Shown: positions 29,288-33,111 of the stretch, piece after piece
Layout of the letters: each line of letters starts with the position of its first letter
How positions within the stretch are numbered: position 1 is the first letter of the stretch
Assembly (NCBI GenBank): GCA_015064015.1
Contig: SVTB01000002.1
Location: 1 to 45,130 of the forward strand
Source of the DNA: Oscillospiraceae bacterium
GTDB lineage: Bacteria; Bacillota; Clostridia; Oscillospirales; CAG-272
Length of the DNA stretch: 45,130 nucleotides
Direction of reading: 5' to 3'
Translations under genes and position numbers: made by a program
Notes under the pieces: model-generated
Database searches by the model: none
What the model was told of the DNA's origin: nothing
Seen by the model: the letters and a program-made list of their open reading frames with translations, nothing else

Positions 29288-29845
29288 TTACCCCTGCTTC
29301 GCCGTCAGCCATCGGTCCCGCTCTGCGGGGGCACTGTCCCCTTGGGAGGCGGCGATATGAGTGCGGCAGTAGGAAAGAAAGCCGGATTCCTCCAGTACTT
29401 CACGGTCGAACTTGACCAGCTCAATGATGTGGGAGCAGGTGGAGGCATCCTCGGCAGTGACGCGGGGGACGTTTGAGAAGAACAGGAGCGTGCGGGGGTG
29501 GTATAGACTGTAGCGTCCCTTATGGAGGACGACGACGGTGCCCCAATCCTTCACTTCAGCCCAGCGGAGCAACTCGTCCTCACGGGCACGCTTGTTGTGG
29601 ACGCGAATGCCCTCACTTGTGACGGTGAGACGGCACCGCCGCTCGCGGATGATGGCCTTAAGGCCTGCCGCGTAGAGGAGGGCACAGCCCGCCAACATGA
29701 GGAGAGTCTCGGGAAAGTAGCGAGAGAGGTCGGAGAGGGTCAGGATCAATCCCAGGGTGGCGGCGGCCAAAATAACGGAGGAGATCACGGTCTCGGAGGG
29801 GGCGTGGCGAAGAATATAGCCGTTGGGTGCCTGATCAATTTTCAT
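29288..29845 (-). CDS. Uncharacterised 2-TM protein, paralog 4 of 4 (185 aa); first gene after flotillin.
   Basis: Starts MKIDQAPNGYIL. Motifs GIRVH, WAEVKDWG and YCRTH. GAAAGGAG RBS. Confidence 0.75.
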   Translation of the reverse strand: MKIDQAPNGYILRHAPSETVISSVILAAATLGLILTLSDLSRYFPETLLMLAGCALLYAAGLKAIIRERRCRLTVTSEGIRVHNKRAREDELLRWAEVKDWGTVVVLHKGRYSLYHPRTLLFFSNVPRVTAEDASTCSHIIELVKFDREVLEESGFLSYCRTHIAASQGDSAPAERDRWLTAKQG

Positions 29846-29873
29846 GGCGGCTCCTTTCTATGTGTGAGTGGGT

Positions 29874-29953
29874 GATACAGAGATACGACATACCAGATAC
29901 CACGCAAGGCGGGTCACGGCCCACCCGTATCTTATATCTCGTATCCTTGTATC
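29874..29953. promoter_or_regulatory. Mirror-symmetric pentamer array: GATAC-3-GATAC-2-CATAC-2-GATAC, a 26-nt GC-rich centre, then GTATC-2-ATATC-2-GTATC-3-GTATC.
   Basis: Pentamers start at 29874, 29882, 29889 and 29896, and at 29927, 29934, 29941 and 29949. The 27-nt arms are complementary at 22 of 27 positions. The centre holds a CGGGT-CACGGCC-ACCCG hairpin. The array lies between the flotillin terminator and the RBS of 29288..29845. Confidence 0.6.
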
Positions 29954-29954
29954 T

Positions 29955-29990
29955 AAAAAATTGCCCCCTCCCCCATTACGGGAGAGGGGG
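29955..29990 (-). terminator. Intrinsic terminator of the flotillin gene.
   Basis: On the minus strand: CCCCCTCTCCC-GTAATG-GGGGAGGGGG followed by CAATTTTTT. Confidence 0.8.
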
Positions 29991-30034
29991 TGACTCCGAC
30001 AGGATCCATCCTGCCGCTTGGGTCTATCTAAGAA

Positions 30035-31525
30035 TTACTTCTTTTCTTCGGTTGCGGCTGCGGCCTTACCGCCCACGAAACCGGAGATCATGCTCTTGAC
30101 GTCCAGGCCGGTGGCTTCCTCCAGGCCTTCCATGATCTGGTTGGAGGAGTTCATGACGTCACGCAGCAGCTTGGTGGAATTGCCGTCGCCGTACATAACG
30201 ATCTTGTCGGTCTGTGCCAGGGGTGCGGCGGCGTTCTTGACCACCTCGGGGAGTGCCTGCAGGTACATTTCCAAGACGGAGGCTTCGCCCATCTTCTTCT
30301 GAGCTTCTGCCTTCTTCTCGATGGCCTCTGCCTCGGCAAGACCCACGGCGCGGATACCTTCCGCTTCCTTCATCTTGGCGTAAGCCTCAGCCTCTGCGAT
30401 GGCGCGCTTGGCCTCAGCCTGACGCTCCTGCTCGTACTTCTCGGCTTCCGCAGCCTTCATACGAGCCATAGCGGCCTGCTCTTCCTCGTAACGCTTTGCC
30501 TCGGATTCCTTCTGACGGCGGATGAGATCTGCTTCGGCTCTCTTCTCGGCCTCGTACTTGAGTGCGTCGGCCTTCTTTTTGATCTCTGCGTCCAGCTTCT
30601 TTTCCTGGAGAGCGATCTCTTTTTCGAACAGCTCGGCTTCCTTTTCACGGCGAGCGATATCAGCATTGGCGGAGGTGACTTCGATGGTCTTTCTCTGCTC
30701 CTGCTTCTGGATATCGTAAGCGGCGTCGGCTTCTGCCTTCTTGATGTCGGCGTCTTTCTTCAGCTCTGCCTCACGGATGGCCAGGGTGGTGTTCTGCTCG
30801 GCGATGCGCTGGTTGGCCTCCACGGCCACTTTGTTGGCAGACTCGCGGGCGTTGGCCTCGGCGATGGCGATGTCACGGGCGGCCTCAGCCTTGGCAATTT
30901 GGGCAGCCTTGCGGATCTGCTCCACGTTATCAATACCCATGTTCTCGATGGTGCCTGCGCCGTCCTTGAAGTTCTGAATATTGAAGTTGACGATCTCAAT
31001 ACCCAGCTTCATCATATCAGGGATGGCATTTTCCTTGATCTTTTCAGCGACGATCTGACGCTCCTGAACCATTTCCTTCAGGCCCACGGAGCCTACGATC
31101 TCACGCATATTACCTTCCAGCACCTGGGTGACCAGGAAGATGAGCTGACGCTGATCCATGCCAAGGAGAGCCTCAGCGGCCTTCTCCAAAAGCTCGGGGT
31201 TAGAGGAAATCTTGATGTTGGCGACACCGTCTACGGTGACGTTGATGAACTCGTTGGTGGGGATGGCTTCACTGGTCTTGATGTCCACCTGCATGACGTC
31301 CAGAGACAGTTTATCCAGACGCTCGATGAGGGGGATGCGGATGCCGGCTTTACCAATCAGGATCTTCTTCTTTTTGCGAACACCGGAGATGATGTACGCA
31401 CGGTTCGGGGGGGCCTTGACGTAGCCTGCGATAAAGAACAGCAGGATGAAGGCGGCAACGCCGATGATGATCCCTATGACATAGTTGGGCAGAGCCAATG
31501 CCATGAGACTGATGTGGTTGAACAT
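30035..31525 (-). CDS. floT: Flotillin-family SPFH (band 7) protein, 496 aa.
   Basis: N-terminal hydrophobic hairpin. The SPFH domain includes YVKAPPNRAYIISG and VDGVANIKI. A long Ala/Glu/Lys-rich flotillin-repeat coiled coil follows. AAAGGAGG RBS. Confidence 0.85.
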   Translation of the reverse strand: MFNHISLMALALPNYVIGIIIGVAAFILLFFIAGYVKAPPNRAYIISGVRKKKKILIGKAGIRIPLIERLDKLSLDVMQVDIKTSEAIPTNEFINVTVDGVANIKISSNPELLEKAAEALLGMDQRQLIFLVTQVLEGNMREIVGSVGLKEMVQERQIVAEKIKENAIPDMMKLGIEIVNFNIQNFKDGAGTIENMGIDNVEQIRKAAQIAKAEAARDIAIAEANARESANKVAVEANQRIAEQNTTLAIREAELKKDADIKKAEADAAYDIQKQEQRKTIEVTSANADIARREKEAELFEKEIALQEKKLDAEIKKKADALKYEAEKRAEADLIRRQKESEAKRYEEEQAAMARMKAAEAEKYEQERQAEAKRAIAEAEAYAKMKEAEGIRAVGLAEAEAIEKKAEAQKKMGEASVLEMYLQALPEVVKNAAAPLAQTDKIVMYGDGNSTKLLRDVMNSSNQIMEGLEEATGLDVKSMISGFVGGKAAAATEEKK

Positions 31526-31915: not shown

Positions 31916-32896
31916 TTATTTTCTCTTCAATTTCCCTACCACACGGCCGCAACAGCTCACGTCGGAAAAATCCTTCAGCATGATGGGTGCGTAAGCGGTA
32001 TTGAGGGAAACCAACCGATCTCCGGCATATTTTTTGAAGTAGCCCGAGCCGTCCAAAACGAAAATACCCAGCTCGCCCTCTTCCACAAAATCACAGCTTT
32101 CCACCAGCAAAACGTCGCCCGAATGATACTTGGGCTCCATGCTGTCACCCGAAATACGCAACGCGTAGTCGGCCTCGCGGGTCTTAGGCGCATCGGGAAT
32201 GAAAATATCCGTTCCCGTATTCTCGGACAAAAACTCGCCCACGCCGGCAGATACCGGCATATCGTACAGGGAAATCTTCCGTCTGCCCACACCGGCAGGC
32301 AAAGAGCCTCGGATGATCCGCCGTTCGGGTGCAGCAGCTTCGGCAACCGGCACAACGGGCGCGGGACGAACCGTTGCAACGACGGCAGCGGGCGTTTCAG
32401 CTTCGGGAGACTCGGAGGTTTCAAACTGATATCGGAAGGATTCACTTTGCTTGATAGCGGCCGCCACGGCACGTTGAGCCGCATCCCCTCGACGCCCCCT
32501 GCGATTAACCTGCTGCTGTTCAGCCAAATTGCGGAGCAATAGCGCTTCCTCTGCGGCCTGGCGAGTACTGCGGTCACGCTCCTTCTCAGCAACGGTAACC
32601 ACCATGGAACGGCCGTAGGCATCCAGCAAGCGGTAGTTTTCCACCAAATGAATTTCATCGGCGTCCAATGTATAATTGTTGGTATTCTCCGGCTCACCCG
32701 TCATCAAATAATCCAAAGAACATTCCAAAGCGCGGCAAATGGCCACCATGTTCACAAGCTTGGGAGAATCGCTGATACCCGCCAGCAATTTGGACAGAGT
32801 TCCCAGGGGAATCCCCGTCATATCCGACAGCTTTTCGTTGGTGATTTTTCTCTCGCTTTTGATTTTTTTGATTCTATCCAGATAGGTTTCCTGCAT
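31916..32896 (-). CDS. XRE-family HTH repressor fused to an S24 (LexA/CI-like) self-cleaving peptidase domain through a low-complexity linker of about 130 aa.
   Basis: The HTH is ITNEKLSDMTGIPLGTLSKLLAG. The S24 domain has the cleavage-site region PVSAGVGEF, the Ser motif GDSMEP and the Lys region GYFKKY. The MQETY start at 32896 is chosen over the ORF-track start at 33061. Confidence 0.8.
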   Translation of the reverse strand: MQETYLDRIKKIKSERKITNEKLSDMTGIPLGTLSKLLAGISDSPKLVNMVAICRALECSLDYLMTGEPENTNNYTLDADEIHLVENYRLLDAYGRSMVVTVAEKERDRSTRQAAEEALLLRNLAEQQQVNRRGRRGDAAQRAVAAAIKQSESFRYQFETSESPEAETPAAVVATVRPAPVVPVAEAAAPERRIIRGSLPAGVGRRKISLYDMPVSAGVGEFLSENTGTDIFIPDAPKTREADYALRISGDSMEPKYHSGDVLLVESCDFVEEGELGIFVLDGSGYFKKYAGDRLVSLNTAYAPIMLKDFSDVSCCGRVVGKLKRK

Positions 32897-32929
32897 GGCA
32901 CATCCCCCGATGATTCTTTCTTTGGAATT

Positions 32930-32957
32930 ATTATAGCACATAATTTGCGATTTGTAA
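32930..32957 (-). promoter_or_regulatory. Sigma-A promoter with extended -10 (TTACAA-16-TGcTATAAT) for the repressor gene.
   Basis: On the minus strand: TTACAA (32957..32952) and TGC-TATAAT (-10 at 32935..32930). Confidence 0.55.
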
Positions 32958-33111
32958 AGGGGTTTTCCAAAATTTGTTCCGATTTTTGACATTTCCGTTT
33001 TGCGAAACCCTTTTTTCTTCCTCCTGCTTTTCCGGAGCGGCAAATCATGGACTCGAGACACAAGAATTTTGTGAACTTTTCATTTTTTACATATAATTCA
33101 CGGGTTTCATA

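Follow-up and report, generated by a model that had tools for sequence, protein, structure and literature searches.

Among the bacterial interspersed repeats, the BIMEs of Escherichia coli (mosaics of REP sequences) and the REPINs with their RAYT partners are modular extragenic palindromes that lie mostly just past stop codons and whose inverted halves can pair into a long hairpin. The ERIC or IRU elements of enterobacteria and the Correia or NEMIS elements of Neisseria are imperfect palindromes of about 100 to 150 bp in transcribed intergenic regions. ERIC and Correia RNA hairpins can change mRNA stability or be cut by RNase III, and Correia elements come with TA duplications and sites for integration host factor (IHF). 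The prokaryotic type II MITEs (miniature inverted-repeat transposable elements), such as Chunjie and QMITE, form families that share only their terminal inverted repeats (PMC10969869). One study defines REP sequences as GC-rich palindromes of 20-40 nt with a GTAG or CGTC head (PMC3733652), and another describes heptameric repeats as abundant in bacteria (PMC4692102). In Haemophilus influenzae, the (ATCTTTC)n heptamer tract in the hmw 5' untranslated region (UTR) forms a long hairpin, and its cleavage by RNase III controls expression (PMC12721329). Arrays of short period can also be protein-binding sites, since the 7-bp heptads to which omega/ParB of plasmid pSM19035 binds are contiguous, stand in direct and inverted orientation and must number at least four (PMC9499535). 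Here, we describe an array of GATAC and GTATC pentamers that lies between the flotillin-like gene floT and a downstream gene cluster, at positions 29874-29953 of a 45,130-nt stretch (the window; contig SVTB01000002.1 of the Oscillospiraceae bacterium assembly GCA_015064015.1). The array is probably a decaying copy of a lineage-specific palindromic repeat of MITE/BIME/ERIC-like character, which we name the heptad element, and would have no dedicated role for the cluster.

The window is contig C58 of its genome (G000), a metagenome-assembled genome (MAG) of 2.27 Mb in 191 contigs that is 75% complete. A repeat search placed the arms of the array at 29874-29900 and 29927-29953. They are 27 nt long each, 26 nt apart and complementary at 22 of 27 positions (81%). 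Exact GATAC pentamers start at 29874, 29882 and 29896, with a CATAC at 29889; exact GTATC pentamers start at 29927, 29941 and 29949, with an ATATC at 29934. The spacing is 8-7-7 in one arm and 7-7-8 in the other, so that the mirror symmetry described in the initial annotation was borne out. The hairpin that it had placed in the 26-nt centre was also recovered, as an apical stem of 7 pairs by RNA folding and of 6 pairs by a terminator-type scan. Of the eight pentamer copies that it had counted, six are exact and the other two are off by one. Its judgement that the array is far above chance stands: pentamers occur at 2.3 per kb genome-wide (both strands counted), the probability of finding at least six of them in 80 bp is 4.7e-8, and about 0.003 such stretches are expected in the 2.27-Mb genome. 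We also confirmed that the array is flanked by the floT terminator and by the Shine-Dalgarno sequence (SD) of a 185-aa open reading frame (ORF), and that it lacks a good promoter, as a scan of positions 29600-30300 gave no sigma-70-type match. The candidate promoter inside the array was rejected on the same scan. The genes of the locus lie on the minus strand. Along the transcript, the GATAC-type arm (29953-29927) precedes the GUAUC-type arm (29900-29874), which adjoins the SD.

The array belongs to a dispersed repeat family. A profile built from 15 copies of other genomes and run with nhmmer on the whole 2.27-Mb genome returned exactly three significant loci: one on contig C155 (E = 4.6e-16), one on C113 (E = 2.7e-9) and the window array at 29874-29961, the weakest of the three (E = 2.1e-5). 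The genes downstream of these three copies are mutually unrelated. The pattern GATAC-N1-4-GATAC-N1-4-NATAC, for which the reversed pattern served as control, matched seven times in the same genome. These matches added the two loci on C113 and C155, both with facing architecture, where the control gave none. Within the genus, the pattern was present in 19 of 24 sampled genomes, with up to 236 matches in G009 and 199 in G010, followed by 94, 84, 83 and 61 in others (controls, 0 to 1), and the other 16 families of the order gave approximately zero. When two G010 loci were compared with the genus by BLAST, dozens of matches 141 bp long and 85-99% identical appeared at unrelated loci, and high-identity copies of this length were found within and between G010, G017, G042, G009, G041, G043 and G001. 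Such identity at unrelated loci reads as the signature of recent copy-and-paste spread. We infer mobility only from the dispersal, the high identity of the copies and their presence or absence at orthologous sites.

All genomes compared are MAGs, and the copy numbers are lower bounds, because the heptad repeat breaks short-read assemblies. Contigs C16, C40 and C62 of G010 (element at positions 20-24) begin inside a heptad element, and C48 of G001 ends inside one. The repeat also swells the number of motifs that are called as novel. A random 277-kb sample of G010 contained only 6 elements, and targeted fetching was used thereafter. In a scan that took a single genome for each of 185,579 species, 80 of at least 120 stretches were examined; among these, facing arrays (>>>> <<<<) were confined to MAGs of Clostridia, Eubacteriales and Oscillospiraceae from the gut (faeces of deer, goats and humans), apart from a few isolated inverted clusters in other phyla (L104, Ardenticatenaceae; L114, Acidiferrobacterales; L137, Smithella). 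One-directional GATACRA heptamer microsatellites of 4-16 units were seen in many phyla (L069-L146: Vibrio, Pirellulales, Chthonomonadaceae, Nitrospirae and others). In Rfam, there was no family match: the window gave only chance-level scores, and full-length relatives resembled miRNA precursors below threshold, as generic long hairpins do. A phage collection gave no match to the element, and a literature search for its sequence returned only unrelated chance matches to primers. As far as we could find, the family is thus undescribed.

About 50 copies from G001 and G010 were read, and 18 full-length copies were aligned. The consensus is about 141 bp long with defined ends and reads, in successive parts, TTCAAATTTGGGTTTATCGAAGA; GATACAA GATACGGA GATACAA GATACAA GATAT; AGAAACGGCAGTCGCCGTAAGGGTTTTTAC; ATATCTT GTATCTTT GTATCTT GTAACTT GTATC; TCACCGAAAAACTGCAATTTGAA. 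Inside its outer frame (TTCAAATTTGGGTTTATCG … AATTTGAA / CGGTAAAACTGCAATTTGAA), a full-length copy has first 4-5 (R)RGATAC heptads, then a conserved loop, about 30 nt long, that forms a small hairpin of its own, and last 4-8 inverted heptads. The arms face each other in all copies and never point outward. The GATAC core shows almost no variation. The purine spacers (AA, GA, AAA, GGA) do vary, and those of one arm have no mirror image in the other. A 16-bp GC palindrome, GCCGAGCAAGCTCGGC, is optional and stands between the heptads of one or both arms in many copies, and some copies without the outer frame begin directly at a stop codon. The ends of the element are related but imperfectly inverted (AAATTTGGGTTTATCG versus AAATTGCAGTTTTNCGG). 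The window array has the layout of the 50+ copies of G001 and G010, namely, two facing arrays of at least three (R)RGATAC units at 7-8-bp spacing around a loop of 20-35 nt. It has neither of the two ends and lacks the frame TTCAAATTTGGGTTTATCG ... AATTTGAA, of which AATTTTTT is a possible remnant. It is therefore a weak, truncated member of the family in a low-copy lineage.

The outer frame, TTCAAATTTGGGTTTATCG…CGATAAACCCAAATTTGAA, is itself very abundant (228 matches in G010, 0 in the control). It is also found on its own, in palindromes about 40 bp long, and surrounding several unrelated palindromic cassettes of 100-300 bp. At 3 of 3 orthologous intergenic loci (Table 1), the species share the frame but not the inner cassette, which consists of heptad arrays in one and of a GC-rich nested palindrome in the other. 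These differences could reflect gene conversion between copies that share the frame, repeated insertion of the type II MITE kind, or cassette exchange. In the window's own genome, frame sites lie at C186:10936-10975, C23:945-1199, C61:5577-5893 and C103:15401-15748. The cassette at C23:960-1180, set in the same frame, has arms of 7-bp units (AAATGCA/AAATTCA, inverse TTTTGCA), so that a 7-bp period recurs across cassette types. Three further observations concern single loci. Between G010 and G042, the sole change in one pair is the gain or loss of the 16-bp GC palindrome inside the right arm. Between L194 (G001) and L016 (G017), the GC palindrome reads GCCGAGCTTGCTCGGC versus GCCGAGTTTACTCGGC, a paired C-G to T-A change that keeps the stem. 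At L260 (G010:C20) and L284 (G042:C123), the frame provides working signals for its neighbours: one end, GGAGATAAGTTGCAG, contains the TAA stop of the upstream gene, and the opposite end, AAATTTGAAAGGA, overlaps the SD of the downstream gene.

The floT gene served as an anchor for orthology. In G000, G010 and G015, the element occupies the same position after the same floT terminator, and its arms and loop align by column. The downstream genes differ among all three species, the 185-aa ORF of the window (29288..29845) being the downstream gene in neither G010 nor G015. The element thus travels with the 3' end of floT and not with the downstream cluster. The terminator is not part of the repeat and is kept in relatives with and without it. 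G015 retains the right end of the outer frame (…TTTTTCTAATTTGAA). In G007, the nearest relative by FloT (96%), the site is empty and consists of the terminator, TTGTTTATCAC… and the SD. G044 is without the element and has a gene that, judged by eye, resembles the 185-aa ORF directly after floT. At this site, G004, G017, G042 and G018 carry the same outer frame around an unrelated palindromic cassette. The heptad copy of G002 and G016 is a separate one that starts directly at the stop codon of floT, and a terminator is lacking there. Among 24 genomes (L039-L062), the region after the terminator was hypervariable, the next gene differing by species and at least four repeat types being present; it is a hot spot for such repeats.

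The orthologous copies differ in unit number, with 4+4 units in G000 (including the two one-off units), 4+5 in G010 and 4+3 exact units plus two degenerate ones in G015. Relative to G010, the window copy carries four lineage-specific arm substitutions. By our reading of the fold and the alignment, two of these become G·U pairs on the sense-strand RNA and two break pairs. Together with the lost frame, the substitutions look like slow decay rather than maintenance. The 9 nt at 29954..29962, which form the T-run of the floT terminator, are probably also a remnant of the outer-frame end (AAATTT...); their counterparts are AAATTTTTGGA in G015, AAAATTTTGGA in G010 and TTGTTTAT in the empty site of G007.

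We then considered gene context and RNA folding. With a simple, approximate ORF caller, 86 arrays were scored, of which 25 lay inside ORFs, 15 had no flanking gene call and 46 were classified as intergenic. Of the intergenic copies, 28 had flanking genes of the same direction, 14 had convergent ones and 4 had divergent ones. In the same-direction group, the median distance from stop codon to array was 19 nt (within 8 nt for 11 of 28), and that from array to start codon was 41 nt. Thus, the elements often fill the spacer between stop codon and ribosome-binding site and would be transcribed together with their neighbours. The sense strand of the window array was predicted to fold into an imperfect 24-bp stem with a 7-bp apical stem at -41 kcal/mol, against -23.5±3.5 kcal/mol for shuffled sequences (z = -5.0), and this hairpin folds independently of that of the floT terminator. 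What comes directly after the array on the sense strand is ACCCACUCAC and not a U-run, so that the array is not itself an intrinsic terminator.

These results bear on the possibility that the hairpin, either as a trait of the whole family or at this locus, is a selected cis-acting RNA element that shapes mRNA fate between adjacent genes, as a barrier to 3' exonucleases for the upstream message, as an RNase III site that uncouples the messages, or as a 5' element that stabilises the downstream message or modulates its translation. The strength of the fold and the location of the copies in transcribed spacers, seldom in divergent regions, are in keeping with it, and the hmw 5'-UTR hairpin cut by RNase III offers a precedent (PMC12721329). 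Moreover, several observations could favour selection and speak against the array being a passive relic. The element has been kept at one site in three species, where its hairpin can fold, a second, independent copy stands in the same intergenic region of G002 and G016, and two of the four arm changes specific to G000 retain pairing as G·U. Full elements between genes of the same direction favour one orientation by 9:3, which is suggestive but not significant, and single-arm arrays, some of which are mis-split two-arm copies, are GATAC-sense by 12:3; this bias hints at strand-specific function or insertion. Two null results count against the mobility of the element. No target-site duplication was seen at the filled and empty floT sites or beside 16 aligned copies. 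In addition, no autonomous partner or mobilising enzyme was found in these IS-poor MAGs in searches that covered Y1_Tnp, IS110 and TnpB. Insertion may use a fixed AATT(T) target. For the full-length G010 copies, there were no clean empty sites, three loci having the same frame with another cassette and synteny being broken elsewhere, which makes a target duplication unreadable. A selected RNA element is nevertheless hard to reconcile with arms that are not strict mirrors, their spacers (AA, GGA, AAA) being unmatched opposite, and with the state of the window copy, which pairs at 22 of 27 positions and carries two pair-breaking substitutions. The closest relative, G007, does without the element and has no replacement for it. 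The floT terminator lies upstream of the hairpin, and most floT transcripts should stop before reaching it. Finally, a range of 0 to >200 pattern matches within one genus fits selfish expansion better than a function that is required. We therefore regard selection at the RNA level as a possible but unlikely explanation of the array.

In a comparison with described repeats, the heptad element resembles MITEs in being shorter than 500 bp, non-coding and intergenic with a stable stem-loop, in its many dispersed copies (about 141 bp, 85-99% identity), whose number varies widely between close relatives, in its series from full-length copies to truncated ones without ends, and in its several cassette types with the same ends. 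Unlike MITEs, it shows no visible target-site duplication, no related autonomous insertion sequence (IS) was found, its ends are only loosely inverted, and its body consists of tandem 7-8-bp units. With BIMEs and REPINs, it shares the nature of a modular extragenic palindrome with two inverted halves, mostly after stop codons, but it has neither the GTAG nor the CGTC head of REP. Like ERIC and Correia elements, it is an imperfect palindrome of about 100-150 bp in transcribed spacers that is present or absent at orthologous sites, although its sequence is unrelated, it contains internal tandem heptads, and it is known here from sequence and predicted fold. The tandem 7-nt units in intergenic or UTR DNA recall the STRR repeats of cyanobacteria, heptameric simple-sequence repeats (SSRs) and the hmw tract, which makes up one arm of a long hairpin in RNA. 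Such tracts run in a single direction and sit at one or a few loci or are simple microsatellites, whereas the heptads form two facing arms in a dispersed element with defined ends.

Candidates for mobilisation were examined in turn. A REPIN/RAYT-like system was rejected: Y1_Tnp genes are absent from element-rich G010 (199 matches, 96% complete), and two are present in element-poor G021 (1 match). Six Y1_Tnp loci were free of arrays and of frame ends and are not flanked by the repeats. IS110 and TnpB found no support either, neither tracking the abundance of the element. In the window's own genome, the only end-pair of about 2.5 kb (C135) encloses a likely glycoside hydrolase (by eye) and a gene resembling sugar isomerases, and it was dismissed as an autonomous element.

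The initial annotation had proposed that the array could be a multi-site operator for an oligomerising regulator. In its general form, this explanation takes the array as contiguous binding sites for an oligomerising DNA-binding protein, such as a wrapping ribbon-helix-helix (RHH) protein or a transposase of the family, and the site could be an operator, a centromere-like site or a subterminal transposase-binding site. The nearly invariant pentamer core amid varying spacers, the consistent facing of the arms and the typical presence of at least four units per arm agree with it, and the parS/omega operator of pSM19035 is a precedent (PMC9499535). Moreover, BLAST of the full element against plasmids matched 85 plasmids of the Bacillus cereus group, in which GATACAAAGATACAT/(GTATCTTT)n arrays stand beside genes for ParA and a protein with a weak RHH_9 match. 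In B. mycoides pBM88 (NZ_CP072063.1, 81641-87986; L343), a prgP-type ParA gene and the gene for the 107-aa protein with this RHH_9 match are flanked by strict 8-bp GTATCTTT arrays of 9, 31, 2 and 16 units, each after two inverted GATAC units; these arrays probably serve as centromeres or iterons. Like the heptad element, the omega and Bacillus arrays have at least four short units of 7-8 bp in direct and facing orientation, and the Bacillus arrays share the GATAC core and a >> <<<< layout. They are, in contrast, strict in period, plasmid-borne and located beside ParA/RHH genes, whereas the heptads have mixed spacing, are split by a loop and occur in hundreds of chromosomal copies.

Measured against the omega system (PMC9499535), the spacing of the window array is not strict (7/8 bp mixed, 8-7-7 here), each arm has one mutated unit, and the arms are 26 nt apart, the family loop of 20-35 bp splitting them in general. 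No homologue of the Bacillus RHH-like protein was found in 29 genomes of the genus, and no arrays were present at the ParA loci in five element-rich genomes. A partition site was rejected on these two grounds, and we keep the plasmid arrays as an analogy only. The flanking genes of the copies are mutually unrelated, and the window's own genome has only three arrays. An operator of the neighbouring XRE-S24 repressor or of the extracytoplasmic function (ECF) sigma factor would be a special case. The assignment of the gene upstream of floT (31916-33061, minus strand) as XRE-S24 was supported by its Cro/C1-type helix-turn-helix (HTH) and Peptidase_S24 domains, as in LexA/CI-like repressors. This gene adjoins this copy alone and cannot account for the others. 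A generic RHH protein may bind the heptads; as an account of the array itself, a protein-binding site appears improbable to us.

A further explanation holds that the array is a simple-sequence contingency tract in which slippage of heptads tunes downstream expression, by phase variation or as a volume knob. Heptad number does differ among copies and orthologues, one-directional GATACRA microsatellites exist in many phyla, and the hmw system would be a precedent (PMC12721329). However, variable spacers and point mutations interrupt the units, which suppresses slippage, each arm at the window site has only 3-4 units, and the same architecture stands beside hundreds of unrelated genes. We judge this explanation to be very improbable.

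The reading that we favour is thus that of a decaying copy of a dispersed repeat. The heptad element would be non-autonomous DNA that spread through part of a genus of uncultured gut Oscillospiraceae, landing or surviving almost only beside the 3' ends of genes. Its insertion at the floT terminator, in the T-tract, would date from an ancestor common to G010, G015 and the window lineage. The window copy would then have been inherited vertically, losing the outer frame and gaining the four arm substitutions. Its only likely effect would be passive: floT read-through RNA would carry a hairpin of 24 bp plus 7 bp ending 16 nt upstream of the SD, which could act as an exonuclease barrier or as an RNase III substrate.

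Against this background, the three proposals of the initial annotation fared differently. A dedicated operator for the cluster is not upheld: the array is a dispersed repeat (profile E = 2e-5) with three different downstream genes at the floT site. Indeed, any dedicated control site for the cluster is very unlikely, because the same repeat is scattered by dozens to hundreds in related genomes. An RNA hairpin acting on floT read-through is physically plausible given the stable fold, which is, in turn, a generic property of the family. A recombination-type structured site comes nearest in spirit, inasmuch as the array would be a relic of mobile DNA. The initial annotation had also suggested searching the genome and its relatives for the pentamer pattern, and such a search found the heptad architecture in congeners, at unrelated loci that number from dozens to hundreds. 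The array being one copy of an abundant REP/MITE repeat with no link to the operon, which had been named as the outcome that would overturn a role for it, is essentially what we found at the level of the genus; the window's own genome has only three copies. The features of the locus are collected in Table 1.

Table 1. Features of the floT locus in the window and orthologous sites with a conserved outer frame.
Feature	Position or locus	Strand	Description
First arm on sense strand	29927..29953		Reads AGATAC-AAG-GATAC-GA-GATAT-AA-GATAC; + strand GTATC, ATATC, GTATC, GTATC; aligns by column with left arm of G010 and G015
GC-rich loop	29901..29926		26 nt with apical hairpin; homologous to floT-site loops of G010 and G015 (fold, terminator-type stem, alignment)
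Second arm on sense strand	29874..29900		Reads GTATC-TG-GTATG-TC-GTATC-TCT-GTATC; + strand GATAC, GATAC, CATAC, GATAC; aligned with G010 and G015
CAATTTTTT (sense)	29954..29962	minus	T-run of floT terminator
floT intrinsic terminator hairpin	29964..29990	minus	12 pairs, 9 of them GC; tail CAATTTTTTA
Flotillin-like gene floT	30035..31525	minus	Band_7/SPFH and Flot domains; 85-96% identical across genus; orthology anchor
185-aa ORF	29288..29845	minus	No Pfam match; SD AAAGGAG at 29857-29851; ATG at 29845
Frame-conserved orthologous sites	L260/L284/L285; L274/L338; L268/L328		G010, G042, G004; G010, G017; G010, G004

Taken as a caution, the locus illustrates that a symmetric array next to a gene cluster, impossible by chance, can be repeat debris and not an operator, and it gives no basis for a regulatory model. 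Among bacterial interspersed repeats, the heptad element is unusual in its arms of tandem 7-8-bp units, in its nested modules and in a conserved frame with differing cassettes (3/3 loci). It is conceivable, if rather doubtful, that the heptads are recognition sites of a sequence-specific protein, one GATAC unit per subunit of a transposase or an RHH-type protein, within a modular cassette system. If so, the family would be a modular repeat system in which the outer palindromic frame, conserved and fixed in locus, takes heptad cassettes, a second cassette of 7-bp period or GC-rich palindromes. Cassettes would then be exchanged inside a hairpin, without target duplication and without a Y1, IS110 or TnpB enzyme, and the window copy would count among the dead members of the system. 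A named family model would be useful for the annotation of gut Oscillospiraceae, in which the repeat breaks MAG assemblies.

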